From the NCBI GenBank assembly GCA_002070505.1, contig MWDJ01000004.1:68695-132694 (forward strand): a DNA stretch of 64,000 bases, written 5' to 3'. This stretch comes from Bacteroidetes bacterium ADurb.Bin145. Lineage in GTDB: Bacteria > Bacteroidota > Bacteroidia > Bacteroidales > VadinHA17. Below are positions 9,155 to 59,464 of this stretch, piece by piece. The position numbers and the translations under genes were made by a program. Numbering within the stretch: the first letter of the stretch is position 1; every line of letters starts with the position of its first letter. The notes beneath the pieces were generated by a model, which ran no database searches, had not been told where the DNA came from, and saw only the letters and a program-made list of their open reading frames with translations.

Positions 9155-9160
9155 AGTTTT

Positions 9161-9210
9161 AAGTATAAAGTACTTAAAGTACTTAAAGTGCCTAAAGTAC
9201 TTAGAGTTAT
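9161..9210. repeat. Tandem array, about 5 units of 9 bp (AGTACTTAA, contains the palindrome AAGTACTT)
   Basis: AGTACTTAA AGTACTTAA AGTGCCTAA AGTACTTAG with degenerate flanking units. It lies between the argF start and a TACATTTG promoter motif. Confidence 0.85.
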
Positions 9211-9224
9211 TTAATATAAAGCTG

Positions 9225-9232
9225 CAAATGTA
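9225..9232 (-). promoter_or_regulatory. -7 motif TACATTTG upstream of argF
   Basis: Matches TAnnTTTG on the minus strand, about 70 nt upstream of the start at 9154. The 9-bp array lies in the predicted 5' UTR. Confidence 0.4.
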
Positions 9233-9263
9233 ATAAAAAGTTAAAAATCCTGTACGTTGAGAA

Positions 9264-9294
9264 ACATCCCCCTAACCCCCTTCGAAGGGGGAAT
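9264..9294 (-). repeat. Conserved hairpin module (ATTCCCCCTTCGAAGGGGGTTAGGGGGATGT on the minus strand), copy 1
   Basis: 16-nt perfect palindrome CCCCCTTCGAAGGGGG (9276..9291). Near-identical module at 59413..59444 on the plus strand. Confidence 0.85.
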
Positions 9295-9302
9295 TTGAAC
9301 GA

Positions 9303-9386
9303 TCACTACTCATCACTCACCGCTCACCGCTCAGCGCTAATCTCTCATCGCTTTCTGCCCCCTGCACCCCGCTCCCCGCCCCATGC
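9303..9386 (-). repeat. Heptamer array, 12 units (sense strand GCGGTGA/GCGGGGA-like), G-rich on the transcribed strand
   Basis: Plus strand TCACTAC TCATCAC TCACCGC TCACCGC TCAGCGC TAATCTC TCATCGC TTTCTGC CCCCTGC ACCCCGC TCCCCGC CCCATGC. It abuts the arcC stop codon. Confidence 0.9.
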
Positions 9387-10564: not shown

Positions 10565-11251
10565 GTGAGATTCAGATCCGGATTGCTTATTGCAGTTTTA
10601 ATTGCAATAACGGGATACTCCTGTAAGTATAAGGGGGGGAAGAATATTAATGAAGGAGAGATCCATTATTCCATTACTTATACTGGTAAAACAGGAATAC
10701 TCCCAAGAGAAATAATGCCAAAGAATCTTATCGTATCTTTTAAGAACGATAAGATATTATTTGATATATCAGCCCCTTTCGGAAATTCCGGGATACTTAA
10801 TCTGTCAAATCCTAAGGACGATATATTTGATACCTATATAAGCCTTCTTACCTGGAAATACTACTATCCCGCCGGACCTGGAGAGTTACACCCGGGTTTT
10901 GACGAAATGAAGGATATAGAAATAAAAACAACCGGCAAAACATCTGTGATATGCGGTTACCACTGCAAAAATGCCCAGGTTACTTTTGCATGTAACAGAA
11001 ACAAGGTATACGACATATGGTTCACTGATGAGATAAATGTAAAGGATCCGAATGCCGGGACTCCTTACAAGGATATTGAAGGGGTACTTATGGACTTTTT
11101 CTTTGTGCTGGGTCCTGCCGAACTGCATTTCGATGCTGAAAATGTATATAAGAAAGAGGTCCCTGACAAGACATTTGAAAGAAGAGAGCAATATAAAAAG
11201 ATCTCACGTGAAGAGATCAATCAGTTTATTTACAGGATGACAACCTTATAG
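10565..11251 (+). CDS. Hypothetical lipoprotein
   Basis: GTG start. Signal peptide ends ...AITGYSC. No family recognised with confidence (weak resemblance to GLPGLI-type proteins). Confidence 0.5.
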   Translation: MRFRSGLLIAVLIAITGYSCKYKGGKNINEGEIHYSITYTGKTGILPREIMPKNLIVSFKNDKILFDISAPFGNSGILNLSNPKDDIFDTYISLLTWKYYYPAGPGELHPGFDEMKDIEIKTTGKTSVICGYHCKNAQVTFACNRNKVYDIWFTDEINVKDPNAGTPYKDIEGVLMDFFFVLGPAELHFDAENVYKKEVPDKTFERREQYKKISREEINQFIYRMTTL

Positions 11252-11347
11252 CAGTCTGGCAGAAGATAGCTATACAACGTTGTTAGTCACTTCCTTTAAT
11301 TGTTTATAAAATCAATTTCCTTCAATAACACAGCGGGGCAAATTTAT

Positions 11348-11355
11348 TAACTTTG
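11348..11355 (+). promoter_or_regulatory. -7 motif TAACTTTG upstream of ftsK
   Basis: Matches TAnnTTTG, 23 nt upstream of ATG 11378. Confidence 0.45.
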
Positions 11356-11377
11356 CCTTGCGTTTTTTCAGAGTACA

Positions 11378-13819
11378 ATGAGCAAGGAGAAAGAAGAAAG
11401 CATGGGAAAATCTGCAAAAAAAAGCAAGGACATACCAAAAGCAAAATCATCATCAGGAGATGAAAAGATAAAATTCGTCATTGGTGTCCTTATTGCGGGT
11501 TTTGCATTATATCTTCTTCTTGCATGCATAGCATATCTTTTCTGGTGGAAGACTGATCTGAGTCTCAGGAATGCTGACATTATCTCAGGTCCCGAGATCG
11601 AAGTGAAAAACTGGTCAGGGAAAAGCGGTCATTTCCTGGCCAAGATGATAATTGGATATGGTTTTGGCTTCGGAGCATTTTTTATTCCGGTCATTTTTGC
11701 TACAATCGGACTTTACCTTCTGAAGTTCCCTGGCATAAGGGTCTGGAATCTTATTGCCAAGCTTGCTTTTGCTGCAATCATCGTCTCACTGATACTCAGC
11801 TATATATTCGGTAAATCAGACGGATATCTTTTCAGCGGACCGGGCGGTGCTCAGGGTTACATCATAACAAGATGGCTTAATGCATTCATGGGAAAGACAG
11901 GTACAGGCATCCTGCTCGGACTTGTAACTATCGGATATCTTGTCTTCGCCTTAAAGGTACCTCCTTCGAAACTAAAGGTTAAAGTACCTGATCTTACTAT
12001 GCCTTTCAGAAGGAATGACAAAGGTGAAAATGCATCACCCGAAGCCGGCACTGAAAATGAAGATGCAGAGGCAGTACTGAGCGAAAACCAGGTTCCTGAG
12101 GAAGCTGCAGGGAGTAAGGTTGAATTTCTCGTAAAGAACAGGACAATGCCTCCTGATGAAGATGAGCCGGTAATAACCCCTAATATCCATGGTTCTTTGA
12201 TACATGATCTTGACGATGACAATAAAAAGGTACCTGAAAAGAAGAATGTCGATATAAATATTACCAAACCGGAGGTTAATGATATCCTCTCTGATGAGGA
12301 AGTAAGCCAGATAATGGAGAATTATGATCCGAGGCTTGACCTTTCAAGATACAAATTCCCGCCTGTTTCAATACTTAAAGAACACAAATCTGAAAGCACT
12401 TTTGACAATAAAGAAGTCTTTGAGAATAAGGAGAATATCATCAAGACTCTTGGTGATCATAAGATATCAATAAGACAAATATCTGCAACTGTAGGCCCAA
12501 CGGTCACTCTATATGAAATTGTCCCGGAAAGGGGGGTCAGACTTGCCCGGATAAAATCGCTGGAGGATGACATTGCCCTCAATCTTTCTGCATTGGGCAT
12601 CAGGATCATAGCTCCGATCCCCGGAAGAGGAACAGTGGGAATTGAAGTGCCTAACAAGAACCCTGAAATGGTTTCGATGCGGTCGTTAATCACTTCGAAA
12701 ACTTTTCAGGAATCAAGATTTGATATTGCACTTGCTTTGGGTCGTACAATAACAAATGACCCTTATATTGTCGATCTTACAAAGATGCCTCACCTGCTTG
12801 TTGCCGGTGCCACCGGACAGGGAAAATCAGTTGGAATAAATGCAATAATCACCTCAATCCTTTATAAGAAACATCCAGCCGAAGTTAAATTTGTCCTTAT
12901 TGATCCCAAAAGGGTGGAACTGCCTCTTTATTCGAAGATCGAACGTCATTTTCTGGCTAAGCTGCCAGGCGAAGAGGATGCAATTATTACTGATACGCAA
13001 AAGGTGATAAACACATTGAATTCACTGTGTATCGAGATGGATAACAGGCTGGAGCTTCTTAAAGGTGCTCAGGCAAGGAATATAAAGGAATACAACGAGA
13101 AGTTCGTATCAAGAAAGCTGAATCCTGAAAAAGGTCATAAGTATCTGCCATACATAGTATTGATAATTGACGAGTTTGCCGATCTTATAATGACAGCCGG
13201 TAGGGAAATAGAAGGCCCAATCGGGAGGCTGGCCCAACTTGCGAGAGCTATAGGGATACATCTTATAATATCTACCCAGCGGCCATCAACAAATATAATT
13301 ACAGGCTTCATCAAGGCAAATTTCCCTACGAGAATCGCTTTCCGTGTTTTCTCATCAATAGATTCCAGGACTATTCTTGATGCCACCGGAGCAGACAGGC
13401 TTGTCGGGCGCGGAGATATGCTTGTATCGTCAGGCAATGAACCTGTGAGGGTTCAATGCGCTTTTATCGATACTCCCGAAATAGAAGAACTTACCGAATT
13501 CATTGGCTCCCAGCAGGGGTATCCCGATGCCATGCACCTGCCTGAATATATCGACGACAGCGAATCAAGCCTGGCGGACGTCGATCTTAAAAAGAGAGAC
13601 CCAATGTTTGACGAAGCAGCACGGCTTGTCGTTCAGCATCAGCAGGGATCGACATCGCTCATCCAGAGAAAACTCTCCATTGGCTATAACCGGGCCGGCA
13701 GGATAATTGATCAGCTGGAGGCTGCCGGCATAGTGGGACCTTTCGAAGGAAGCAAGGCAAGAGACGTGCTTTGCTCCGACATGATTGTTTTGGAACAGAT
13801 TTTGAAGAGTCTTGATTAA
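11378..13819 (+). CDS. ftsK: DNA translocase FtsK/SpoIIIE
   Basis: N-terminal TM helices, linker, motor domain with Walker A GATGQGKS and Walker B LIIDEFADL, C-terminal gamma winged-helix (QRKLSIGYNRAGRIIDQLE). Confidence 0.95.
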   Translation: MSKEKEESMGKSAKKSKDIPKAKSSSGDEKIKFVIGVLIAGFALYLLLACIAYLFWWKTDLSLRNADIISGPEIEVKNWSGKSGHFLAKMIIGYGFGFGAFFIPVIFATIGLYLLKFPGIRVWNLIAKLAFAAIIVSLILSYIFGKSDGYLFSGPGGAQGYIITRWLNAFMGKTGTGILLGLVTIGYLVFALKVPPSKLKVKVPDLTMPFRRNDKGENASPEAGTENEDAEAVLSENQVPEEAAGSKVEFLVKNRTMPPDEDEPVITPNIHGSLIHDLDDDNKKVPEKKNVDINITKPEVNDILSDEEVSQIMENYDPRLDLSRYKFPPVSILKEHKSESTFDNKEVFENKENIIKTLGDHKISIRQISATVGPTVTLYEIVPERGVRLARIKSLEDDIALNLSALGIRIIAPIPGRGTVGIEVPNKNPEMVSMRSLITSKTFQESRFDIALALGRTITNDPYIVDLTKMPHLLVAGATGQGKSVGINAIITSILYKKHPAEVKFVLIDPKRVELPLYSKIERHFLAKLPGEEDAIITDTQKVINTLNSLCIEMDNRLELLKGAQARNIKEYNEKFVSRKLNPEKGHKYLPYIVLIIDEFADLIMTAGREIEGPIGRLAQLARAIGIHLIISTQRPSTNIITGFIKANFPTRIAFRVFSSIDSRTILDATGADRLVGRGDMLVSSGNEPVRVQCAFIDTPEIEELTEFIGSQQGYPDAMHLPEYIDDSESSLADVDLKKRDPMFDEAARLVVQHQQGSTSLIQRKLSIGYNRAGRIIDQLEAAGIVGPFEGSKARDVLCSDMIVLEQILKSLD

Positions 13820-13829
13820 AAAGATCCCG

Positions 13830-14468
13830 ATGAGAAAGTCATTGCTCATAATCCTGACCCTGCTTGCAGTTCAAATTAATTTAAACGGTCAGAACGATGC
13901 CAGAGCCGTTAGTATTCTTGATAAATTTTCAGATGCTGCTTCTTCCGCGCCATCAGTATCGATGAAATTCCTGCTCGTGACAGACGACCAGGTTGAGAAT
14001 TCAAAAGACACACTTGCGGGATCTATAATACTGAGTAAAGACAGGTACAGACTTGATCTTCCGGATAATATAATATGGTTCAACGGAAAAACATCCTGGA
14101 GTTACCTTCCTGCCGAGAAGGAAGTTACAATAACAAATCCCGATGATGCAGAGGATTCATTCCAGAGCCGCCCTTCAATGATATTCACTATGTACAGGAA
14201 CGGATTCAAATGCAGGCTGCTTGAAGAAAAAAATGATTTGTACATTATAGATCTCTATCCGGAAGATGTAAAAAATGAACTCATACGGGTGAGATTAACA
14301 ATCGCAAAACCATCCCTTAACCTGAAAAATTTTGAATATAAGAGAAGAGACGGCATAACACATACACTCATCGTAAGGGATTACAATCTGAAGATAGTAC
14401 CTGAAGAGAACACATTCACTTTCTCACCCTCTAAATACAAAGGGATTGAAGTAGTTGATATGCGTTAA
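13830..14468 (+). CDS. lolA: LolA-like outer-membrane lipoprotein carrier protein
   Basis: Signal peptide MRKSLLIILTLLAVQ. About 210 aa, immediately after ftsK as in many Bacteroidota. Start moved from TTG 13812 to ATG 13830. Confidence 0.6.
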   Translation: MRKSLLIILTLLAVQINLNGQNDARAVSILDKFSDAASSAPSVSMKFLLVTDDQVENSKDTLAGSIILSKDRYRLDLPDNIIWFNGKTSWSYLPAEKEVTITNPDDAEDSFQSRPSMIFTMYRNGFKCRLLEEKNDLYIIDLYPEDVKNELIRVRLTIAKPSLNLKNFEYKRRDGITHTLIVRDYNLKIVPEENTFTFSPSKYKGIEVVDMR

Positions 14469-14476
14469 AACCCATT

Positions 14477-15874
14477 TCAGATCCTATCCGGATAAGCAAC
14501 ACGCACGTGATAGATATTCTGAAGTCGTTTTTTAAAAACTGATTTTATATCGGATATATCTTTATAAGTAAGCGGCACGTCAGAATATTGCCCGTCCTGT
14601 TCCTGGAGATACATGATCCTTTCAACAAGCTCACTTATACCCTCCTCGGTGTATTTCTCAAGGCTCCTGGATGAAGCTTCCACGGCATCAGCCATCATTA
14701 CTATTGCCGTCTCCTTGGAGAATGGCTTAGGACCCGGATATGTGAAAGCTTTTGTATTATCTTTTTCACCCGGATTCTGATCGACATGCTTTTTGTAGAA
14801 GAAATAAGCTACTGAAGTACCATGATGAGTCCGTATAAAATCAATCACCTGAACCGGGATCTTATAATTCTTTGCCAGAACAACTCCCTGTCTGACATGA
14901 TTAATAATCACTTTTGCACTATCCCTTGGATCAAGTTTCTCATGCGGGCTGACTCCATCAGCGATATTTTCAATATAATAAGACGGATTGGCAACTTTCC
15001 CGATATCGTGGTACAAAGCGCCTGTCCTAGTAAGGTGCATATTTGCACCGATCACCCTGGCTGCCTCTTCAGCGATATTGGCAACCTGAAGGGAATGCTG
15101 GTAGGAACCGGGAGCTTCGACGGCCAGCTTCCTAAGCAAGGGCTGGTTAGGATCAGCAAGCATCAGCAGCGTTGTATCAGAGATGAGAAGGAATTTCTGC
15201 TCAAAAAGGAATATCAGGGGAAAACTTATAAGTACAAGTAATCCGTTTCCTGCAAAAAGAAGATAATCAAAAAAACCATTACTTTCAGGAACTCCTCCCT
15301 TAATCATATTCATTCCCAGGTAAATGACAGCATAGCTTACAATGACCATTAGTGATGTAAAGAACAGTCTGCTCTTCCTGAAATTATTTGTCAGTGTGAA
15401 TATAGCCATCATACCTGAAAGGAAATTCATAAGTATGAATTCAAATGGTTCCGGAACCATGAATCCGGCAAGCATTATCGTAATAAGCAGGATGAACAGG
15501 GCGAGTCTTGAATCGTAGAACGTCCTGATAATAACCGGGATCACTGCAAATGGCACGATAAATATTATGTTTTCCTGCTTAATATTCAGTACCAGCCGGG
15601 TAATAAGCAGGAATGTGATTATCGCAAGCAGAATGAAAAATGTTTTCCTGTTTACCTGAAGCACCTCCTGCCTGAAATGGAGCAGGAAGAGATAAAGTAC
15701 TGTATAACAGAAAGTAACCACCATGGTTGTTCCAAAAACAGACAGCCTGCCGTCCTCGCTTCCTCTGGTAAGTATCACGACAACTGTTGCAATACTTAAA
15801 ATGAAAAAGAGAATATCAAGTAAGGTCTTTTTCACTTTTGGAAAGTCATTGTCGCCAGGGATTATCTGCTCCAT
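14477..15874 (-). CDS. 7TM-HD (HDIG) membrane phosphohydrolase, PgpH-like, short form
   Basis: Multi-pass membrane region followed by an HD domain (HSLQVANIAE..., GALYHDIGK, THHGTS). 465 aa, so it lacks the large extracellular domain of roughly 700-aa homologues. Confidence 0.8.
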   Translation of the reverse strand: MEQIIPGDNDFPKVKKTLLDILFFILSIATVVVILTRGSEDGRLSVFGTTMVVTFCYTVLYLFLLHFRQEVLQVNRKTFFILLAIITFLLITRLVLNIKQENIIFIVPFAVIPVIIRTFYDSRLALFILLITIMLAGFMVPEPFEFILMNFLSGMMAIFTLTNNFRKSRLFFTSLMVIVSYAVIYLGMNMIKGGVPESNGFFDYLLFAGNGLLVLISFPLIFLFEQKFLLISDTTLLMLADPNQPLLRKLAVEAPGSYQHSLQVANIAEEAARVIGANMHLTRTGALYHDIGKVANPSYYIENIADGVSPHEKLDPRDSAKVIINHVRQGVVLAKNYKIPVQVIDFIRTHHGTSVAYFFYKKHVDQNPGEKDNTKAFTYPGPKPFSKETAIVMMADAVEASSRSLEKYTEEGISELVERIMYLQEQDGQYSDVPLTYKDISDIKSVFKKRLQNIYHVRVAYPDRI

Positions 15875-15906
15875 TTACCTGTTAGTATTTTAAGAAGTAA
15901 ATGTAG

Positions 15907-15914
15907 TATTTTTG
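15907..15914 (+). promoter_or_regulatory. -7 motif TATTTTTG upstream of the NlpC/P60 gene
   Basis: Matches TAnnTTTG, 17 nt upstream of ATG 15931. Confidence 0.45.
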
Positions 15915-15930
15915 ATAAAAATTCCGGAAT

Positions 15931-16692
15931 ATGGAACGTTATATATGTGAGAATGTTTTTGTACCGCTCAGATCCGGGCCAACACACAGGTCTGAAATGC
16001 TCAGCCAGGTATTATTCGGGGAAAAATATAAGATCCTCGACCAGGTTGACCACTGGTTGAAAATAGAAACCGAATTTGACAATTTCACCGGATGGATCGA
16101 CCGTAACCATTTGCAACATGCATTAGCCGTGGATGACACACCCGGGTATGTACTTAACAGATCCTTATTGTGTTTCAAAAGTGACAGGACCAAAATGATC
16201 CTGGAAGCAGGATGCGAAATATACAATCCTGATCCGGATAAATCCTGTTTCTTGGCAGGAGATAACCTGTACACAACCGGGAATGATTTTAACAGTAGTT
16301 ATTTTTCGTCGACTGATTCGGTATCCGATACAGCAATGAGATTTATAAACAGTCCGTATATCTGGGGTGGCAGGATACCATCCGGTATTGACTGTTCCGG
16401 TCTTACACAGCTGGTATATAAGATACATGGCAGAAAGCTTCCGAGGAACAGCTGGCAGCAGGCTGAAACGGGTGAAGATGTTGCCTTCATCAATGATACA
16501 AAACCGGGTGATCTTGTCTTTTTTGACAATGAAAGGGGTAAGATCTCCCATGTTGGGATGATCATTTCGAGAGGTCTTGTGATCCATGCTTCGGGAAGGG
16601 TCAGGATTGATCAGATCGATCACCAGGGCATCTACAAGCAGGAGATAGGGACTTATTCTCATCATTTGAGGATGATAAGGAGGGTTTGCTAG
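15931..16692 (+). CDS. NlpC/P60 (C40) peptidase with N-terminal SH3-like domain
   Basis: Catalytic Cys context GIDCSGLTQLVY and His context ISHVGMI. The TAG stop overlaps the first repeat unit of the downstream array. Confidence 0.85.
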   Translation: MERYICENVFVPLRSGPTHRSEMLSQVLFGEKYKILDQVDHWLKIETEFDNFTGWIDRNHLQHALAVDDTPGYVLNRSLLCFKSDRTKMILEAGCEIYNPDPDKSCFLAGDNLYTTGNDFNSSYFSSTDSVSDTAMRFINSPYIWGGRIPSGIDCSGLTQLVYKIHGRKLPRNSWQQAETGEDVAFINDTKPGDLVFFDNERGKISHVGMIISRGLVIHASGRVRIDQIDHQGIYKQEIGTYSHHLRMIRRVC

Positions 16693-16802
16693 TCTGCTGG
16701 TCTGCTGGTCTGCTAGTCTTATAGTCTTATTGTCTTCTAGTCTTATAGTCTTATAGTCTTATAGTCTTATAGTCTCTTAGTCTCCTTGTCTTGGAGTCTC
16801 CT
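16691..16802. repeat. Tandem array, 14 degenerate 8-bp units (AGTCTNNN)
   Basis: AGTCTGCT GGTCTGCT GGTCTGCT AGTCTTAT x2 TGTCTTCT AGTCTTAT x4 AGTCTCTT AGTCTCCT TGTCTTGG AGTCTCCT. It starts inside the NlpC/P60 stop codon. Confidence 0.95.
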
Positions 16803-16824
16803 TAGAAAATTTTTGTCAGAATTA

Positions 16825-17184
16825 TTATTTGTTATTCTTAAGAAATTTCATAAGACTTCCTGTTCCCTTGATTATCGCCTGACATTTTTCTCTTCTGTCA
16901 TCGGCTGTCTCAAATGATATATATTGCTGATCCTGAGCAATATAATACATGTTTTTTACTTCTCCGGCTGATCCTTTGGAGAAATTCAGAAACTGTCGGA
17001 ATTCAGAATCACCCTGCCGGCAAAAACCTTCAGAAATATTATTCATAATTGAAATTCCTGCAGCAGTGATCTGGTTTCTGAAAGTAAAGTCTTTACAGCC
17101 TCTGAAATCGGAATAAACAAGATTAACCAATTCTCTTGATAAAATCCAGATTTTTAGTTCTTCGAAGTTTTTAATTGTTCCCAT
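16825..17184 (-). CDS. Four-helix-bundle protein (23S rRNA intervening-sequence protein / Avd family)
   Basis: 119 aa. FEELKIW...SRELV..VY, RNQITAAGISIMNNISEG and FLNFSKGSAGEVKN are the family pattern (PF05635/TIGR02436-like, from memory). Confidence 0.8.
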   Translation of the reverse strand: MGTIKNFEELKIWILSRELVNLVYSDFRGCKDFTFRNQITAAGISIMNNISEGFCRQGDSEFRQFLNFSKGSAGEVKNMYYIAQDQQYISFETADDRREKCQAIIKGTGSLMKFLKNNK

Positions 17185-17256
17185 TTTAGCACGATTTAAT
17201 TATTAATGATCTAATATAATAATTAATAATTTTCAAATAAATCCGCATACTAAAAA

Positions 17257-17424
17257 CTCCACGACTCCAAGACTAGGAGACTAGGAGACTAGAAGACTCT
17301 AAGACCATCGACTCCAAGACCATAAGACTAGAAGACTCCGAGACTAGAAGACTCTGAGACTAGGAGACTCTGAGACTAGGAGACTCTGAGACTAGAAGAC
17401 TCTGAGACTAGAAGACTCTGAGAC
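17257..17424. repeat. Tandem array, about 21 degenerate 8-bp units (NNNAGACT), inverted relative to 16691..16802
   Basis: Units such as GGAGACTA, GAAGACTC, TGAGACTA. 17263..17283 is the reverse complement of 16778..16798 at 20 of 21 positions. Confidence 0.95.
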
Positions 17425-17456
17425 AAAAAAAAGCCACCCCAATCAGGAGCGGCTTT
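17425..17456 (-). terminator. Intrinsic terminator after susD (bidirectional geometry)
   Basis: Minus strand AAAGCCGCTCC-TGATT-GGGGTGGCTTT followed by T8. The plus strand reads the A-run, the hairpin, then TTTCTTGTTT. Confidence 0.8.
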
Positions 17457-17477
17457 CTTGTTTCAGGTAATTATTTT

Positions 17478-18878
17478 CTACTTGGTGCTGCTATATCCAA
17501 GGTTCTGTACCATGTTGGAGTTGGCAAGAAGCTCAGCACGAGGGATTGGGAAAGCATATTTATAACTACCGTAAGTCGGGCCTCCGTGTGTCTGTTTCAG
17601 AGGATCAACAAGAGGTATATTGCTTCCGGTGCGGGCCAGGTCGTCAAACCTGAAACCTTCGAAGGCAAGCTCTTTCCGTCTCTCCAGAAGGATATTGGCC
17701 TTTGTAGCTTCGGTATAAAGTGTAGCATTTCTCTTTGCAGGTATCATATTGAGATATGTCAAAGCATTGGGATCTGCATTGTTCAATTCGAATAAAGCCT
17801 CAGCATAAGTCAGGATAACCTCTTCATATCTGATAAGGAAGATGTCATCAGAATAGTCAAGTGAAGGATATTTTCCCATGTTCCTTATCTTCGAGCCTTC
17901 CATTCCTAACATTCCGTTTACAAACCCTCTGACATCAGAAGCTTCATAAAGATTAGACAGATTAGCCAGTGTCTCAACATCACCGTAATTCGAACCACGA
18001 TAGATATACTGAAGGCCATTTATATTCTGATTGTCCGTGTTGCTGAAAGCAAGTTCAAAAACTGAATTCACAGGACTGTCAGTTTTCCAAATGTTGACAA
18101 AATTTGCTGCTTCGACAACCTGGAATCCTGCTCCTGAATTTATAACAGCTTCACATGCAGTTTTAGCAGTTGACCAATCCTTGAAATATAAGGCAACTCT
18201 TGCTTTAAGAGCATTTACAGCGTGAGTCGTCATATAATATTTTGAGTCATCATTCAAGTCTGGTGACATTAGTAAAAGAGCCTGGTTAAGGTCCTCATTG
18301 ATTTTCGTTCTTACTTCTGTTACAGTATTCCGCCGTGGCAGAAGATCGTCACCTTTATAAACAGTAATATATGGCACTCCAAGGGTGGGGTCGGCACCTG
18401 CACCCGAGACATGCATTTGTCCGAATAGTTTCAGAAGGTCAAAATGAACAAGAGCTCTTATGGCATATGCCTGTCCCTTTATATGATCAATTTCCTCCTG
18501 ATCACCTTCAATTCCTGTTGCATTAATAACTATGTTAGCCCTGGCAATAGTACTATACATACTCGACCATGTGTCTGTAGCATAGGCATCATTATTACCC
18601 ATAGTCATAGCCGCAGGTGTAGTAAATCTACCGGATTTACCGTTGGCAAAAGAGTTGTCAGATCTTACTTCACCAAAAATGATATAATCGCGGCCATAAT
18701 AGGAAGACGCTGTTAACTGGTCATATGCTGCATACAGTATTCCCTGAATGTCCTCTGTGGTTTTAATGCTCGTCTCCACAGCTTTCTCCTGCGCCAGTGT
18801 GGGTTCCAGGTAATCTTCACTGCATGAGAATGAAATTCCCAACAAAACAATTGCAGATATTATAATTATTTTTCTCAT
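17478..18878 (-). CDS. susD: SusD/RagB family nutrient-binding outer-membrane lipoprotein
   Basis: Lipoprotein signal (GISFSC). TPR-like SusD pattern with C-terminal RKELAFEGFRFDDLAR. Directly downstream of susC. Confidence 0.9.
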   Translation of the reverse strand: MRKIIIISAIVLLGISFSCSEDYLEPTLAQEKAVETSIKTTEDIQGILYAAYDQLTASSYYGRDYIIFGEVRSDNSFANGKSGRFTTPAAMTMGNNDAYATDTWSSMYSTIARANIVINATGIEGDQEEIDHIKGQAYAIRALVHFDLLKLFGQMHVSGAGADPTLGVPYITVYKGDDLLPRRNTVTEVRTKINEDLNQALLLMSPDLNDDSKYYMTTHAVNALKARVALYFKDWSTAKTACEAVINSGAGFQVVEAANFVNIWKTDSPVNSVFELAFSNTDNQNINGLQYIYRGSNYGDVETLANLSNLYEASDVRGFVNGMLGMEGSKIRNMGKYPSLDYSDDIFLIRYEEVILTYAEALFELNNADPNALTYLNMIPAKRNATLYTEATKANILLERRKELAFEGFRFDDLARTGSNIPLVDPLKQTHGGPTYGSYKYAFPIPRAELLANSNMVQNLGYSSTK

Positions 18879-18882
18879 GTCT

Positions 18883-21800
18883 TTAGAATTTTATATTAAC
18901 ACCAAATACAACTGATTTAACGGGAGGCGTGGTAAGTCTTGTTAAACCGTCAGCACGTACTTCCGGATCCCATTTAAGGCCTTTATCCTTAACCCATGTC
19001 CACAGGTTGGTTCCGCGGGCGAATATTGAAATATCGCTGAGCTTTAACCTGTTCTCGATTGAAGAAGGTAAAGAATAACCTAAGACAATATCTTTCAGTC
19101 TTATATAGTCGCCATCATAAAGAAATCTCGAAGATGGTCTTGACACATTGTTTGCAACACTGCTGTAAAGTACTTTCGGTTCATCTGTAATATCACCGGG
19201 TTCCTGCCATCTATCCATAAGTTCTGCAACACCGTTATAATAAAGAAGTGAATATATTCCATTATGGTGTGTGTACCTGGACCAGTCTTCGAAAACTTTA
19301 TTACCTCCTGAGAAGAAGAAATTAGCATCAAGGAATATTCCCTTAAAATCAACATGAGTTCCGAACCCACCTGAGTATGTTGGCATTGCACTTTTACCCT
19401 GGAATTCTTCCTTTATATTAACATCATAGTAATTATTTGTTACTTCTCCATCCTTGCCATTAAGGTACCACTTTGGTAATCCGTTAGCACGGTCCACGCC
19501 AGCCCATTTTCTCATATACCAGGCATAAATTGGCTGTCCGACTGCTGTTTTTCGGTTGTAGACAGGAATTTCAATATCCTTGCCTGCTGCATCCTTTGCG
19601 AGTTCCAGAACCTTATTCTGAACAGTGGCAAGATTGGCATTTACACTCCAGTTTAAATCTGTTTTTCTTACGATAGCTACACTTAGCTGTGCTTCAATCC
19701 CTTTGTTTTCTACAACTCCAATATTCTGGGTGATAATATTATGACCAGAAGTCCTGGTTATAGGTACATCCTGCAACAGGTCAAAAGTTTTCTTGTAAAA
19801 ATATGCAAGAGAACCAGTTATCCTGTCTTTAAGGATACCGAAATCAGTACCGATATCCAATGTATGGTTCTTCTCCCAGGTAAGGCTGCTGTTTCCATAT
19901 TGAGCCGGGTATATTGCACCCATATTTGCATAATCAGCACTATATCCCAATAAAGCCTGATAAGCATTAAGACCTACACCAGCACTACCGCTCAACCCAT
20001 AGGATGCCCTGAACCTAAGGTTGCTTATGAGTTCAATATTTTTAATGAATGATTCTTCGCTGGCATTCCATGCCACACCGGCTGACCAGAAATTACCAAA
20101 TCTGTTTTCAGGTGCAAATCTTGATGAACCTTCTCTCCTGAATGTAAAGTCAGCAATATATTTGCCTCTGTAATTATAATTTGCCATTCCAAGATATGAA
20201 AGGTTGTTCCAGTCGTTAAAAGAAGAACTGGCATCAAAATTTGCTCCTGCGCTGGCAATATTTGTAAGTCCATCTGTAGAAAAATTCTCACCAGACCCCC
20301 AGAGGAAATGGTTTTTGTTTTTCTGATATTCTATTAAAGCTTTGAATGACAAGTTATGATCACTGAACCTCAGAGTGTAATCAAGTGAGTTCTGGAATAC
20401 TGTGTTGAAATTCCTTTCCGCTGATGCATAAGCATAACCACCTTCCTGAGCAGCATCTCCATGTATTCTGTTCTGGTATTGTTTATAATTAGCCAGGTTA
20501 TAGTCAGCAGATACAAATGTTCTGAATTTTAAATCTTTGATTATATCCCATTCAAGGCTTGAGTTTACAAGAGCACGAGTATAGTCATTTGCGTTAATAT
20601 CATGTTCAGCCAGGTAGATTGGATTGAATATTCCAACCCAGATATCAGTGTCCGGAGTACCATCTTCCTTATATGGCTGTTCCCATGGACTCATAAAGTA
20701 TTTTGCCAGGTTAGGATTAGCAAAATAAGCAGCCTGTTCAAGGTATGCATTCTGGTATGTATTTGATACATTTGTATTTATAGCAAATTTTACTTTGCTT
20801 GCTAATTTCCTGCTATAATTAAGTGCACCGGTGATTCTTTTAAAATCACTGGTTATCACAGTAGCTTCCGTTTTATTATATCCAAGGGATGCATAAAATG
20901 AAGACACATCGTCTCCTCCGGTTGCGGAAATACTTGCATTTGTAACAGGAGCGTTTTTATTTGTTACAGCATCATACCAGTTACCTTCTTTCCCCACTCC
21001 TGTAGCAACTCCACCATCCCATTCGGTAAGTAGGCCATAATCAAGTTCATTATCTACCATGAAATCATACGCTTCAGCTTCACTGAAGCCATATGCAGTA
21101 CCGTAACTGTTATAGATTGCTTCAAGGAAAAGCTCCTTTCTCTGGGCTCCGGTGAGTGGGGTCCGTCCCTTAACAGCATTATTCTGGAATCCTGTTGACA
21201 ATGATACATCAAAATTAGTTTTGCCTGATTTCCCTTTCTTGGTGGTAATAACAATTACACCATTGGAACCTCTTGCACCATATGCTGCAGTTGCCGAAGC
21301 ATCTTTCAGAACAGTGAGGCTCTCAATATCATTGCTGTTAAGAGCTGAAAGTGCACTTAGTGTACTTGATGCAGCACCGTCACCAGAGAAATCAGAATTG
21401 ACTACTGGTGCACCGTCAACAATGATCAATGGATCATTGCTTCCGGTAATTGATCCGACACCCCTGATCCTAATGTCCTGAACTGATCCTGGTGTTCCGG
21501 AAGATGATGAAATGTTAACACCTGCAACTTTTCCCTGCAGTGTCTGATCAACAGTTACGACAGGTACACTTCTTAGTTGATCTCCAGATAGTTGTACTGT
21601 CGAACCTGTCAGCTCGTTCTTGCTGCGTGTGGCATAACCGAGGACCACAACTTCACCCATAGCAAGAATATCAGATTCCATTGTAACGTTGACTACTGTT
21701 CTACCGGCAATTTCCACTTCCGTTCTTTTCATACCTACGTATGAGAAAATCAGAGTGGTAGAACCGGATGGAGCATTTATACTATAGCGGCCGTTAGCAT

Positions 21801-21963
21801 CAGTAATTGCACCTATAGTAGTTCCTTTCACAGTAACCGTCACACCAGGCACTACAAGACCATCCTCAGCGCTGGTCACAGTACCTGTAATCTGCACTGT
21901 CTGCCCGATAACGAGGTAGCTCGTCAGGAGCAGCAGTGTAAAAAACATACATAATCTCTTCAT
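18883..21963 (-). CDS. susC: SusC/RagA family TonB-dependent outer-membrane transporter
   Basis: 1026 aa. CarboxypepD_reg-like N-terminus (ITGTVTSAEDGLVVPGVTVTVKGT), plug (DPLIIVDG) and a C-terminal beta-barrel ending in F. Confidence 0.95.
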   Translation of the reverse strand: MKRLCMFFTLLLLTSYLVIGQTVQITGTVTSAEDGLVVPGVTVTVKGTTIGAITDANGRYSINAPSGSTTLIFSYVGMKRTEVEIAGRTVVNVTMESDILAMGEVVVLGYATRSKNELTGSTVQLSGDQLRSVPVVTVDQTLQGKVAGVNISSSSGTPGSVQDIRIRGVGSITGSNDPLIIVDGAPVVNSDFSGDGAASSTLSALSALNSNDIESLTVLKDASATAAYGARGSNGVIVITTKKGKSGKTNFDVSLSTGFQNNAVKGRTPLTGAQRKELFLEAIYNSYGTAYGFSEAEAYDFMVDNELDYGLLTEWDGGVATGVGKEGNWYDAVTNKNAPVTNASISATGGDDVSSFYASLGYNKTEATVITSDFKRITGALNYSRKLASKVKFAINTNVSNTYQNAYLEQAAYFANPNLAKYFMSPWEQPYKEDGTPDTDIWVGIFNPIYLAEHDINANDYTRALVNSSLEWDIIKDLKFRTFVSADYNLANYKQYQNRIHGDAAQEGGYAYASAERNFNTVFQNSLDYTLRFSDHNLSFKALIEYQKNKNHFLWGSGENFSTDGLTNIASAGANFDASSSFNDWNNLSYLGMANYNYRGKYIADFTFRREGSSRFAPENRFGNFWSAGVAWNASEESFIKNIELISNLRFRASYGLSGSAGVGLNAYQALLGYSADYANMGAIYPAQYGNSSLTWEKNHTLDIGTDFGILKDRITGSLAYFYKKTFDLLQDVPITRTSGHNIITQNIGVVENKGIEAQLSVAIVRKTDLNWSVNANLATVQNKVLELAKDAAGKDIEIPVYNRKTAVGQPIYAWYMRKWAGVDRANGLPKWYLNGKDGEVTNNYYDVNIKEEFQGKSAMPTYSGGFGTHVDFKGIFLDANFFFSGGNKVFEDWSRYTHHNGIYSLLYYNGVAELMDRWQEPGDITDEPKVLYSSVANNVSRPSSRFLYDGDYIRLKDIVLGYSLPSSIENRLKLSDISIFARGTNLWTWVKDKGLKWDPEVRADGLTRLTTPPVKSVVFGVNIKF

Positions 21964-21997
21964 AAATTAAAGTTTAGGTTAATGATTAATCGAACCG

Positions 21998-22005
21998 CAA
22001 ATATA
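21998..22005 (-). promoter_or_regulatory. -7 motif TATATTTG upstream of susC
   Basis: Matches TAnnTTTG on the minus strand, 35 nt from the start at 21963. Confidence 0.45.
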
Positions 22006-22072
22006 TCCAAATATTTCAGATTATCAATATGTAAGTAAGTAATGTAAATATTTTTTTAGTTTCGTATTTAAT

Positions 22073-23734
22073 TTAGATGTTTCCGATCTGTCTGTCAACA
22101 ATTTCCATAATTGACCGTTCTTCATTAAATGCCTTGTTTTCCAGGCTTTTCCCTTTCATAATAATATCCTTTACAAAAGGGTCTGTTTCCATACCCAAGG
22201 CATTTATTCTCACATTCAGAAAAGCTCCTCTTATACAGGAGAGAATAGCCAATCCTCCGACGGCTGCGTCTGTCACTGAAGCCGGATTCCCATCTTTTGC
22301 CATTTGTTTTACAATTTCAAATCCTTCAAAAGCTGTTTCCATAACCTTGTAAGGGACTGCAATGGCATTTCTATATGCTTCACTGACAGCATTTTTCCGG
22401 ATTCTATGCTCCTCATCTGTCTTTTTCGGAAGACGGTTAGCCATAATGATCCTGTTATAAGCCGCTGTGTCCTCATCGACAAGATCCAGCAGCCGGTTCT
22501 GTATATCCTTCCCCTTAACTGCCCAGTCTGAGAACTCTTTCCACCTGTCGTCCCAGCCTTTTTTATGGGAAGATAAATTTGCAACCATTGTCCCCAGGGC
22601 TACTCCAAGAGTTCCGATATATGCAGATACTGACCCGCCTCCCGGGGCCGGTGACTCCGATGCCACTGTTTCCATAAATGATCTCAGGTCAAGATCAACT
22701 AGTTGTTTCTTACCTTTTTCTGCCATAACGTATTCGATTATTTTCTCCTGCGGTTCAAAGGGATGTAGATCATCCAGTCCCATTGACTTCACAGCTATCT
22801 TTATTAATTCCGAATCTGACACACCAGACGATCTCTGCTGTTTTTCAAGAAAGTACTTCCCGGCATCGAGCATTGCTTTAAGCGGTATCAATCCCACAAG
22901 TTCCGAACCAGTCACCCGTACTCCGCGTGCATCGGCCTTCCTGCAAACTTCATCAAAGGCGATATGGACCGGCGTTACCGATATATTTGTCAGATTCATC
23001 GATATCTGGGCTATCCCATATTCCTCTATATACCAGCCGATTGCCTTTACACTTTTAAGTGTACCAGGTACACTTATTTCTTCACCCTTTTCATTTTTGA
23101 CATTTCTTCCTTTTTCCCTGACGTCGTAAGCGATTGCGTTCGCCCTGCGGGTGGATGTAGTGTTAAGGTTTATGTTGAATGCTACAAGAAAGTCACGTGC
23201 TCCTACCGCGGTCGCTCCCGAGCGAGCATTGAAAATAGCCGGGCCGAAATCAGGCTTCCATACTGGATCACAGAGTTTTTCCTTTAGTCCTTCGTATTCA
23301 CCAGCCCTGCAGTTTGCCAGATTTCTGCGTTTCTCCTCAAGGGCGGCGTTTTCATAACAGTAAACAGGTATGCCAAGCTCGTTTCCTATTCTCTCTGCCA
23401 GCTTCCTCGCATATACTACAGTTTCTTCCATTGTTATACCGGAGACCGGCACAAGAGGGCATACATCAGTTGCTCCCATTCTGGGATGCTCACCATGATG
23501 TTTCGACATATCAATGATCTCCGATGCTTTTTTTACAGCAAGAAATGCAGCTTCAGTCACCGCTTCCGGATCCCCCACAAAAGTTACTACGGTCCTGTTG
23601 GTATCCTTCCCCGGATCAATATCCAGGAGTTTTACCCCTTCAACAGATTCAATAACATCAGTGATCTGTCTTATTACCGACATGTCTCTGCCTTCACTGA
23701 AATTAGGAACACATTCAAGGATTCGTCTCGCCAT
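22073..23734 (-). CDS. ftcD: Bifunctional glutamate formimidoyltransferase / formimidoyltetrahydrofolate cyclodeaminase
   Basis: N-terminus ILECVPNFSEGRD (formiminotransferase) and a C-terminal cyclodeaminase domain (APGGGSVSA). 553 aa. Confidence 0.9.
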   Translation of the reverse strand: MARRILECVPNFSEGRDMSVIRQITDVIESVEGVKLLDIDPGKDTNRTVVTFVGDPEAVTEAAFLAVKKASEIIDMSKHHGEHPRMGATDVCPLVPVSGITMEETVVYARKLAERIGNELGIPVYCYENAALEEKRRNLANCRAGEYEGLKEKLCDPVWKPDFGPAIFNARSGATAVGARDFLVAFNINLNTTSTRRANAIAYDVREKGRNVKNEKGEEISVPGTLKSVKAIGWYIEEYGIAQISMNLTNISVTPVHIAFDEVCRKADARGVRVTGSELVGLIPLKAMLDAGKYFLEKQQRSSGVSDSELIKIAVKSMGLDDLHPFEPQEKIIEYVMAEKGKKQLVDLDLRSFMETVASESPAPGGGSVSAYIGTLGVALGTMVANLSSHKKGWDDRWKEFSDWAVKGKDIQNRLLDLVDEDTAAYNRIIMANRLPKKTDEEHRIRKNAVSEAYRNAIAVPYKVMETAFEGFEIVKQMAKDGNPASVTDAAVGGLAILSCIRGAFLNVRINALGMETDPFVKDIIMKGKSLENKAFNEERSIMEIVDRQIGNI

Positions 23735-36504: not shown

Positions 36505-36600
36505 GGCGTAAAAGTAGTAAAAAGGTGCAAAGGTGCAAAGGTGCAAAGGCGCAAAGGCGTAAAGGCATAAAGGCTACCTAAAGCAAAGACTATCAAAGGA
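36505..36600. repeat. Tandem array of 8-bp units (AAAGGNNN); core 36521..36576 has 7 units
   Basis: AAAGGTGC x3, AAAGGCGC, AAAGGCGT, AAAGGCAT, AAAGGCTA, then degenerate units. Located between the DUF362 stop and the trxB start. Confidence 0.9.
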
Positions 36601-46029: not shown

Positions 46030-46441
46030 GATATCTGATTTAAAGTTCTATTGTAAAAATAAACTGAAGGAGAAATAAAAACAAATAGCAAGTTCCCATT
46101 TAATGGACATTTACGACGACAATGCCCATGCTTCGTCAAAATAATCAGTGATGTTATTAATTTTTATCATGATCTCATACTCTTATATGTTCAGTTAGTC
46201 AAAAACAGATCATTATTGACTAACAAAAGCCGGGATTCATGAAACATATATAATGAGGTGATTTATATTACTGATTATCAGAGTAATATTATATATTTTC
46301 TGGAATAATTTATATATGGATTGTTTTGACGAATGCAACAAAAACAAGAGTATATTTTTCAATATTTCTCTCCCCGCAGTAACTTTAATGCTAAAAAATC
46401 TTCACCAATTGTCTTTTTTGATTTTTATGATAATTATATTT

Positions 46442-46602
46442 TATGAGTATCAGGAATCATTAATACTATTTACAAAATCGCTTGAAAATCAATTTATCTA
46501 CCCCTACCCCAAGGGGAGTAAATTGATTTTCTTCGCTCCCCTTGGGGCCGGGATAGACGAAGAAAATCAATAAAATATTGTGTATGATTCCTGATACTCA
46601 TA
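46442..46602. repeat. MITE-like 161-bp element with perfect 19-bp terminal inverted repeats and a nested hairpin core
   Basis: TATGAGTATCAGGAATCAT (46442..46460) vs ATGATTCCTGATACTCATA (46584..46602). Internal 12-bp GC stem 46507..46518 / 46536..46547. Confidence 0.6.
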
Positions 46603-46787
46603 TAATATTTATTACTCAAAGGAAAGAGGTCATATTGAATATATGGATGTCCATGTTGCACCAAGAAGCCTCTATCTGAGCCAGCTTAAAGACCGGCTTG
46701 GAATTGATGCTGTTATGAATATTGCAGGCGAGAACCAGTTCAAACAGACTACCCTGGGTAATCCTTTACAGGTTTTCTGATCCTTAC

Positions 46788-59337: not shown

Positions 59338-59403
59338 GAGGGCAGCGGTGAGTGGTGAGTGATGAGCAGAGGGCGGGGAGCAAGGAGCGGGGAAATGAGG
59401 GGA
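59327..59403 (+). repeat. Heptamer array, about 11 units (GGTGAGT/GGGGAGC-like), G-rich
   Basis: GGCGAGT GGTGAGA GGGCAGC GGTGAGT GGTGAGT GATGAGC AGAGGGC GGGGAGC AAGGAGC GGGGAAA TGAGGGG. It overlaps the dapF 3' end. Confidence 0.9.
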
Positions 59404-59412
59404 CCAAAATCT

Positions 59413-59444
59413 GATTCCCCCCTTGAGGGGGGTCAGGGGGATGT
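59413..59444 (+). repeat. Conserved hairpin module (GATTCCCCCCTTGAGGGGGGTCAGGGGGATGT), copy 2
   Basis: C6-TTGA-G6 hairpin followed by TCAGGGGGATGT. Same orientation relative to transcription as copy 1. Confidence 0.85.
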
Positions 59445-59464
59445 AAAAATCGGCATAAGCTGAT

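Follow-up and report, generated by a model that had tools for sequence, protein, structure and literature searches.

Proteins of the PF05635 family include those encoded by intervening sequences (IVSs) of rRNA and the Avd accessory proteins of diversity-generating retroelements (DGRs). With its counterpart model TIGR02436, the family is large, comprising 5586 clusters at 50% identity in a single-sequence search, and to our knowledge DGR Avd proteins and the open reading frames (ORFs) of rRNA IVSs are its only characterized relatives. In the 23S rRNA IVSs of Leptospira, Coxiella, and Brucella, terminal inverted repeats pair into a stem whose loop contains the ORF for a PF05635 protein; the Coxiella IVS carries an S23p ORF, and its 28-bp terminal stem is cut by RNase III (PMC4990558). 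Such an IVS resides within the host transcript, is vertically inherited, and is regarded as selfish or neutral (PMC4990558), properties to which those of the element described here can be likened. This element is found in a 64,000-nt stretch of contig MWDJ01000004.1 from Bacteroidetes bacterium ADurb.Bin145 (termed the window), where a gene for a 119-residue four-helix-bundle (4HB) protein of the same family is enclosed by two inverted arrays of an 8-nt unit. With moderate confidence, we interpret it as one member of a widespread group of cassettes in which a PF05635/TIGR02436 gene occupies the loop of a long, imperfect hairpin made of inverted arrays of 7–9-nt units, and which would constitute a nonribosomal counterpart of the ORF-bearing 23S rRNA IVS.

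The family assignment, proposed in an initial annotation made from the sequence alone, is borne out by matches above the curated cut-offs to both PF05635 (E = 4e-25, 88.5 bits against a cut-off of 33.8, residues 8–106 of 119) and TIGR02436 (E = 2e-24, 85.7 bits against 24). PF05635 is the sole family match of the encoded protein, which is not a Y1 (HUH) transposase, and the closest solved structure is that of XCC0516 (2GSC, E = 2.5e-7), a pentamer of four-helix bundles. The ratio of nonsynonymous to synonymous substitution rates (dN/dS) is 0.06–0.16 for the window gene compared with its orthologues, and values of 0.04–0.19 indicate purifying selection on the 4HB protein. Unlike the 23S rRNA IVS, however, the cassette is flanked by protein genes rather than embedded in rRNA. 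As the initial annotation had supposed, there is no rRNA at the locus: the flanking genes encode NlpC/P60 and SusD proteins, Rfam gave no match at E ≤ 1 for positions 15500–18500, and helix 25 or 45 of 23S rRNA, the location required of an IVS, is not where the cassette is found. Moreover, the cassette arms are tandem arrays of 50–170 nt composed of 7–9-nt units, whereas the IVS stem is a unique sequence of ~28 bp. The cassette also has an internal leader with promoter-like boxes and occurs in both orientations.

In the window, the arms are inverted relative to each other over 108 nt at 74% complementarity, which increases to 89% over the inner 46 nt (16753–16798 versus 17263–17308), and their gene-proximal ends form a 20/21 inverted repeat (16778–16798 versus 17263–17283). 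The arrays lie 22 nt from the ORF stop and 73 nt from the ORF start, as read from the sequence, and no other long inverted array pair is present in the 64-kb window. The inner part of the right arm (17256–17324) is irregular; its outer part (17325–17424) has a 16-nt period, AGACTAGAAGACTCTG, repeated 6.2 times at 96% according to Tandem Repeats Finder (TRF). At the outer boundaries, the first unit of the left array contains the NlpC/P60 stop codon, and the right array stops at the A8 run of the SusD terminator. This hairpin folds on both strands, at −25.5 kcal/mol with a U8 tail on the minus strand (SusD sense) and at −21.1 kcal/mol on the plus strand; it was folded directly because a sigma-70 promoter and terminator scan, not informative for Bacteroidota, had missed it. 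An A-run and hairpin likewise abut the arm in three related loci (L005, L006, and L007) and in gene-less relatives. When positions 16650..17470 of the minus strand are folded as RNA, both arms pair and the ORF is placed in the loop, with a minimum free energy of −279.8 kcal/mol against −196.6 ± 6.4 kcal/mol for shuffled sequences (z = −13.1); single arms folded separately are unstructured (z = 0.2 and 0.9). The initial annotation had described inverted 8-bp arrays with this inner repeat and these spacings, a module running from the NlpC/P60 stop to the A-run of a bidirectional terminator, and an imperfect stem of more than 100 bp around the ORF, to be compared with shuffled controls; TRF, sequence reading, and folding agree with each part of that description.

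The same architecture is common among close homologues. When species-representative genomes were scanned with 28 aligned close homologues as the query, 80 loci were recovered at 62–93% protein identity, all in metagenome-assembled genomes (MAGs) of Bacteroidales. Arrays of at least 24 nt were found by TRF on both sides of the gene, with a period of 8 or 9, in 63 of the 74 loci that had enough flanking sequence. In the sense of the gene, the layout is constant: a 5ʹ arm, an AT-rich leader of 70–100 nt with conserved boxes, the motif AAATCGTGCTAAA, the ATG and ORF, a few nucleotides, and the 3ʹ arm. Across 81 aligned leaders, the motif is 70–90% conserved, and a TAnnTTT[AG] box is present at −31 to −49 in 55. 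The unit varies by locus (e.g., GTCTTGCG, GTCATGCAA, AATCATGC, GTTGTGCG, GGGTTTAC, GTCTGAGG, and AGTCTNNN); the unit family of the 5ʹ arm invariably recurs as its reverse complement in the 3ʹ arm, with a median arm complementarity of 83% over 37 nt. Polarity is largely fixed: the 5ʹ arm is rich in G/T and the 3ʹ arm in C/A in ~56–64 of 73 loci and in every other phylum seen, and the GC skew of the window arms is ~0.

Chance expansion of ordinary microsatellites on either side of a small, unrelated gene could in principle produce such a pattern, as short-period arrays are common (0.34 per kb away from 4HB genes) and also occur at the NlpC/P60 junction without the gene. However, array density within 300 nt of the 4HB gene is 3.45 per kb, a ten-fold enrichment, and the arms are always inverted and drawn from one unit family. 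Furthermore, the arrangement recurs in many phyla with unrelated units, and one gene family accounts for nearly all widely spaced inverted pairs. Chance is excluded. In 160 loci, inverted array pairs are bimodal in spacing, being either <150 nt apart (10 pairs) or 300–900 nt apart (60 pairs), and a PF05635 gene is enclosed by 59 of the 60 wide pairs (>250 nt), with 57 detected by the 4HB hidden Markov model and 2 representing a divergent paralogue. Whenever something stands between inverted arrays, the content is the 4HB gene family; the sole exception (L115, 3270–4089) consists of inverted heptamers (AAGGTGC ... TGCAACA) after an NlpC/P60 gene that enclose 752 nt without a 4HB-matching ORF or an Rfam match.

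The divergent paralogue is seen at two loci. One of its cassettes (L025, 977–1467) encodes a protein of 121 aa between arms of CTGGTTG x4 and CAACCAG x5 and is situated 2 kb upstream of this MAG's main period-8 cassette. At L018 (670–1459), a divergent PF05635 gene between inverted arrays is broken after ~50 domain codons by a 106-aa ORF for a GIY-YIG nuclease (937–1257), which looks like a homing-endonuclease-type insertion in the 4HB gene. Two genes of the same subfamily are also found within 2–3 kb of each other on single contigs, at L010 (67–411 and 3001–3348) and L037 (3001–3357 and 4942–5298).

Arms and gene are inherited together, and the unit family and period track the 4HB phylogeny rather than the genomic site or the genome. 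On the 4HB protein tree, one large part has period-8 arms only, and period-9 arms are found in the other, apart from one nested return to period 8. Units of their own characterize smaller clades (e.g., AATCnTGC and nGTTnTGC). At sites B, E, and M, the two parts are both represented, and the arm period is in each case that of the clade concerned. Similarly, copies within one MAG, which are ~65–80% identical in protein, differ in unit and period (L025/L046, L006/L068, L078/L081, L044/L080, and others). This mapping onto the tree replaced a k-mer test of own versus foreign arms, which was confounded by the many loci that share a unit family. On a shorter time-scale, the arms change length by whole units among strains: of four public contigs with an identical NlpC/P60 protein, one (L003) is identical to the window, and another (L002) is identical except that its left array is two units (16 bp) shorter, as expected of the slippage-prone microsatellite arms that the initial annotation had envisaged. 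The remaining two (L001 and L004) end inside the left array, indicating that assemblies break there. Many homologues are known only from contigs of 0.5–2 kb, and short-read assemblies end in arrays; cassettes are therefore probably under-represented or truncated in MAGs.

The arrangement extends far beyond Bacteroidales, as would be expected of the self-contained cassette proposed at the outset. In almost every lineage sampled, standalone PF05635/TIGR02436 genes are embedded in inverted short-period arrays. Inverted 7–9-nt arrays of unrelated sequence accompany distant homologues (27–38% identity) in nine other lineages that range from Xanthomonas and Nostoc to Bipolaricaulota. In Xanthomonas, X. 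sacchari, and Dyella, orthologues of XCC0516 occupy the accB-accC interval and are flanked by inverted GGGAATC-type arrays (29–30 nt at 83–90%). Among six further lineages, the arrays are clear in Bipolaricaulota, Gracilimonas, Marinimicrobia, and Deltaproteobacteria and complex in Acidobacteriota and in Fibrella (ilvB-ilvN). A tblastn search identified 13 plasmid records, and inverted 7-nt arrays adjoin the gene in 9 of the 9 distinct loci examined. The plasmid arm units include GGTTTAA in Riemerella, GGGAAAA in Nostoc (31 nt at 94%), AGTCAGG in Nostoc and Aulosira (33–40 nt at 88–94%), AAAAGGG in Geminocystis, and GGACAGA in Azospirillum (36 nt at 86%). Among viral contigs, a single relative was found, and it is without arrays.

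The position of these distant cassettes bears on how they may be expressed. Spacers of 15–75 nt between co-directional genes are filled by the arms in Nostoc, Xanthomonas, Marinimicrobia, and Fibrella; in most of the distant cases, the gene has the same direction as its neighbours, so the ORF and both arms must share one transcript. Essential biosynthetic operons host the cassette between co-directional genes in several instances (accB-accC in L170–L175, ilvB-ilvN in L185, and purM-dsbD in L183), and the position is kept from Xanthomonas to Dyella. More generally, the cassette would be placed in a transcribed spacer, which in the window is the interval between the NlpC/P60 stop and the next terminator and in other phyla is the interior of an operon that leaves no room for a promoter. 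A cassette in a transcribed spacer implies that host read-through RNA contains both arms, which could pair in any register to form an interrupted duplex of ~100 bp; we infer that the arms do pair in read-through RNA. By analogy with the rRNA IVS, this duplex would be a substrate for RNase III, and cleavage would release the RNA of the cassette from the host mRNA and would govern how the 4HB gene is expressed. The arms themselves would evolve by slippage and recombine with each other.

A number of observations weigh against this RNA-hairpin interpretation. The promoter-like boxes of the Bacteroidales leaders are situated between the arms, so mRNA of the gene itself may contain the 3ʹ arm but not the 5ʹ arm. 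Arm-duplex energy does not differ between sense and antisense (44 versus 32 loci, p = 0.72), and absolute duplexfold energies are uninformative because cross-locus controls scored high too. Variant units show no mirror-order covariation between arms beyond that of unit-order shuffles (mean z = 0.5; z > 2 in 7 of 55 loci), and arm lengths are weakly correlated (r = 0.28), so exact pairing is not under tight selection. In the window, the outer arms pair only through a 5-nt AGTCT core (74%). Gene-less arrays are very common, at ~1 per 3 kb in these loci and with 186 arrays in X. campestris (PMC4692102), and remnants of lost cassettes may not suffice to account for them. Additionally, short-read assemblers can mis-orient a segment between inverted repeats, and some of the orientation differences discussed below may be artefacts; as orientations are phylogenetically coherent and are present in long-read contigs, a general assembly artefact is argued against.

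The main rival to a hairpin acting in RNA is a cognate protein–array system, a possibility that we hold to be real but rather doubtful. RAYT proteins are Y1 transposases whose genes are flanked by REPs, which are unique palindromes. Like REP/REPIN-RAYT systems, the cassette comprises one small gene flanked by an inverted short repeat, and short-repeat arrays are also dispersed, often as doublets able to form hairpins, in the intergenic regions that follow genes. In such a system, the 4HB protein would recognize arrays of its own unit family at the DNA or RNA level and, acting in trans, would bind, generate, stabilize, or mobilize gene-less arrays elsewhere in the genome. The exclusive association of wide inverted pairs with PF05635 genes favours this model, as do the agreement of unit family and period with 4HB clade (including the heptamer arms of the divergent paralogue), the fixed polarity of the arms, and strong purifying selection on the protein. 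Likewise, the motif before the ATG, AATCGTGC, is similar to array units that are common (e.g., AATCGTGC and AGTCGTGC), and the relative Avd binds nucleic acid and reverse transcriptase. However, the 4HB protein has no catalytic motif or known catalytic activity and has a modest net charge, and its arrays are tandem rather than palindromic. Moreover, the dispersed arrays of the window (AAAGGTGC, TAAAGTACT, and GxGGTGA) belong to other unit families and lack the AGTCT unit of the resident cassette, and clade-specific units are explained equally well by co-inheritance.

The situation in Xanthomonas bears on the protein–array model. Heptamer arrays of GGGAATC in Xanthomonas and GGGGA(C/T)T in Nostoc were described by Rehm et al. 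2015 (PMC4692102), and in X. campestris, 186 GGGAATC arrays and 70 convergent inverted pairs are reported (PMC4692102). These arrays resemble the ones described here in being intergenic, located just past gene 3ʹ ends, often arranged as convergent inverted pairs, stable between species, and variable in length; the window units differ in being 8-mers that are not G-rich and in having a gene between the arms. The arms of the Xanthomonas 4HB gene at accB-accC are exactly Rehm-type GGGAATC arrays, so that here, in contrast to the window, the dispersed arrays match the flanking units. Cognate recognition would better explain the abundance of gene-less arrays, the fixed polarity, and this match between flanking and dispersed units. 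Tentatively, standalone TIGR02436 proteins may be trans-acting partners of 7–9-nt intergenic arrays such as the GGGAATC repeats of Xanthomonas, the heptamer repeats of cyanobacteria, and the arrays found here at ~1 per 3 kb, with each 4HB clade recognizing, maintaining, or spreading its own unit family and each gene being enclosed by two arrays cognate to it. If true, this would be a new protein–repeat system comparable in scope to REP/RAYT and the first function for IVS/Avd-like proteins outside retroelements.

The history of the NlpC/P60-SusD junction is relevant to whether the cassette moves. Orthologous NlpC/P60 genes are followed by a cassette (site A) in L005, L006, L007, L009, and L066, and among 80 metagenomic NlpC/P60 loci it is also found in L085, L086, L114, L146, L154, and L160. 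Identity of the 4HB protein tracks that of NlpC/P60 (93/85, 80/70, 77/75, 76/74, and 69/64%), most site-A proteins form one clade, and the nearest 4HB neighbour comes from the same site for 50 of 65 proteins. Matched identities and same-site neighbours point to mainly vertical inheritance, and judging from these comparisons the cassette at this junction is ancient and not a recent hop. The 4HB gene is convergent with NlpC/P60 in the window, L005, L085, L009, L146, and L066 and co-directional with it in L006, L007, L114, L154, L160, and L086; on the NlpC/P60 tree, L086 and L005, which have opposite orientations, are sisters. Cassettes persist over long spans of time at conserved intergenic sites. 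Syntenic sites at which both orientations are found are A, B, Bʹ, F, G, and L, and the comparisons include Mb-scale long-read MAG contigs that differ from each other in orientation. Recombination between the inverted arms would account for this most simply, and it would also explain how the arms can share a unit family and yet not mirror each other exactly.

Relatives that lose the gene keep gene-less array hairpins at this junction. An inverted pair with a short loop stands right before the terminator in L147, L136, L130, L145, L105/L127, L149, L158, L117, L153, L157, L132/133, L161, L142, and L109, and single arrays are found in L106/L122, L088, and L118. L087 retains three left units and one right unit of the GTCTTATA family, as in the window, and is nested within the cassette-bearing clade of the NlpC/P60 tree, making it most simply a deletion remnant. 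In L090 and L144, the stop codon is followed directly by the A-run and terminator, the clean empty site that the initial annotation had predicted. That annotation had also named gene-less arrays arising by plain microsatellite drift as a pattern that would speak against a cassette; such arrays are indeed common, but they are mostly inverted pairs that form hairpins. Some hairpins at this site are built of heptamers similar to those in the arms of the divergent paralogue, which suggests that other cassette lineages held the NlpC/P60 site earlier.

These relationships also bear on mobility at the DNA level, which the initial annotation had offered as one option. The cassette could be a foldback-type transposon, or it could be exchanged via its arrays as register-free homology arms, with gene-less hairpins serving as landing pads. 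In Drosophila, FB foldback elements have long inverted termini made of short tandem subrepeats, and in Neisseria Correia and ERIC hairpins, which are transposable elements of the miniature inverted-repeat type (MITEs), the element is co-transcribed with neighbour genes and cut by RNase III. The cassette shares terminal inverted repeats with these elements. Consistent with movement, sites B, E, and M are each shared by 4HB lineages that differ in arm period, one lineage occurs at different sites, insertions are found between genes of essential operons in several phyla, and the gene-less hairpins and empty sites above share the junction with occupied ones. However, descent is mostly vertical, and the cassette, which carries a conserved protein gene, has no transposase and no near-identical copies (none were found, and the window holds a single copy). 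No consistent target-site duplication is evident by eye at the outer junctions of 70 loci, where array borders are fuzzy; at these junctions, the palindrome extends into A/T-rich flanks (tt|GTC...GAC|aa). A single trans-acting transposase is unlikely, as unit and period vary among the copies of one genome. Mobility finds indirect support in the sharing of sites by different 4HB lineages, and we regard a DNA-level mobile cassette as unlikely.

Another explanation would have the arms serve as DNA or translation signals, whether for transcription insulation or as non-B DNA at both borders (G-quadruplex or cruciform), or as a clamp between Shine-Dalgarno (SD) and anti-SD sequences, with GGAG in the 5ʹ arm and CTCC in the 3ʹ arm. 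In SD-using lineages (Nostoc, Xanthomonas, and Azospirillum; L166–L169, L171, and L176), the 5ʹ arm consists of repeated GGAG/AGGAG (AGGAGTC in Nostoc, GGGAG in Xanthomonas, and GGAGGA in Azospirillum) and the 3ʹ arm of CTCC, so that arm pairing would mask ribosome-binding sites. The G-rich strand always faces incoming transcription, and Xanthomonas GGGAATC arrays form G-quadruplexes in vitro (PMC4692102); that study treats the repeats as quadruplex motifs and makes no mention of the 4HB gene. However, units found in Bacteroidales (e.g., GTCTTGCG and AGTCTNNN) do not resemble SD sequences and are not prone to form quadruplexes, and the window arms have almost no GC skew, yet the architecture is conserved. 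Signalling of this kind is quite improbable. The hairpin cassette akin to an rRNA IVS remains the interpretation that we prefer.

Several known systems were considered and rejected. The cassette protein shares the four-helix-bundle fold and family of Avd (PMC10053308), but a DGR is ruled out, as there is neither a reverse transcriptase gene among the ORFs at 14000–21000 (HD-domain protein, NlpC/P60, 4HB, SusD, and SusC) or in the 11–23-kb part of the window nor a template/variable repeat pair, the two arrays being the only direct repeats of at least 40 nt in 11000–23000. A CRISPR array, with its repeats of 23–50 nt and unique spacers, is ruled out by contiguous 8-nt units that have no spacers. 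Earlier work recorded the PF05635 family in cas loci and near CRISPR arrays, without a link to heptamer arrays. A known anti-phage defence gene is likewise ruled out, as PADLOC defence-system models gave no family at E ≤ 0.01. A second 4HB gene in the window was also discounted: the only other tblastn match (8683–8501, E = 0.003) lies inside the ornithine carbamoyltransferase gene and is spurious. The parts of the cassette and its boundaries are given in Table 1.

Table 1. Positions of the cassette parts and adjoining features in the window
Feature	Position	Strand	Description and basis
SH3 + NlpC/P60 gene	15931..16692		Left array begins in its TAG stop (16690-16692)
Left arm (3ʹ arm in 4HB gene sense)	16689..16802	.	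TRF: period 8, 14.2 copies; inverted versus 17256-17424; 14 units of AGTCTNNN (GGTCTGCT, AGTCTTAT, AGTCTCCT, and others); first unit contains TAG 16690-16692
Spacer, ORF stop to 3ʹ arm	16803..16824	-	22 nt, read from sequence
119-aa 4HB gene, PF05635/TIGR02436	16825..17184	-	ORF and profile matches
AT-rich leader	17185..17255	-	Alignment of 81 leaders
Leader motif AAATCGTGCTAAA	17185-17197		In gene sense, immediately before ATG; promoter-like boxes GGATTTATTTG and TTTTTAG farther upstream
Right arm (5ʹ arm in gene sense)	17256..17424	.	~21 units of NNNAGACT; TRF period 8, ~20.5 copies (17256..17418/17424)
SusD bidirectional hairpin terminator (A8, stem-loop, T-rich tail), outer cassette boundary	17425..17468	.	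Folding

Other repeats are present elsewhere in the window. The spacer between the carbamate kinase and ornithine carbamoyltransferase genes (9155–9386) contains a 9-mer array of TAAAGTACT (4.7 copies, 9166–9207) right before the ornithine carbamoyltransferase start, a small hairpin of CCCCCTTCGAAGGGGG with ACATCCCCCT (~9255–9300), and C-rich heptamers (CTCACCG and others) at 9309–9352 that continue to ~9385. A composite of this spacer in reverse is located directly after the stop of a dapF-like gene (59338–59445), with G-rich heptamers (GAGTGGT and GGGGAGC) followed by TTCCCCCCTTGAGGGGGG and CAGGGGGATGT; similar units at the NlpC/P60 junction of L135, L111/L116, and L088 represent a second repeat family, tied to single arrays. 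Upstream of a thioredoxin-reductase-like gene (36521–36574), there is a single 8-mer array of AAAGGTGC / AAAGGCGC (6.8 copies) without an inverted partner, and its unit family forms single arrays after NlpC/P60 in L115, L155, and L162. Finally, a nested inverted repeat at 46436–46608, with 36-nt outer arms (86% complementary) around a 22-nt hairpin (CTACCCCAAGGGGAG / CTCCCCTTGGGG), looks like a MITE.

The arrangement of a gene with inverted arrays has apparently not been described previously. The initial annotation was aware of no such cassettes, and a full-text literature search found no paper linking PF05635 genes to flanking inverted arrays. In practical terms, cassettes break short-read assemblies, and their arrays could pass for CRISPR-like repeats. 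The hypotheses raised here are directly testable in the tractable Xanthomonas, Nostoc, and Riemerella. For the biology of the PF05635/TIGR02436 family, the inverted arrays supply a defining genomic context and connect the family to intergenic heptamer and octamer arrays that have hitherto been described but not explained. If the interpretation favoured here is right, the concept of the IVS would extend from rRNA to mRNA spacers and to operons such as accB-accC, ilvB-ilvN, and purM-dsbD.

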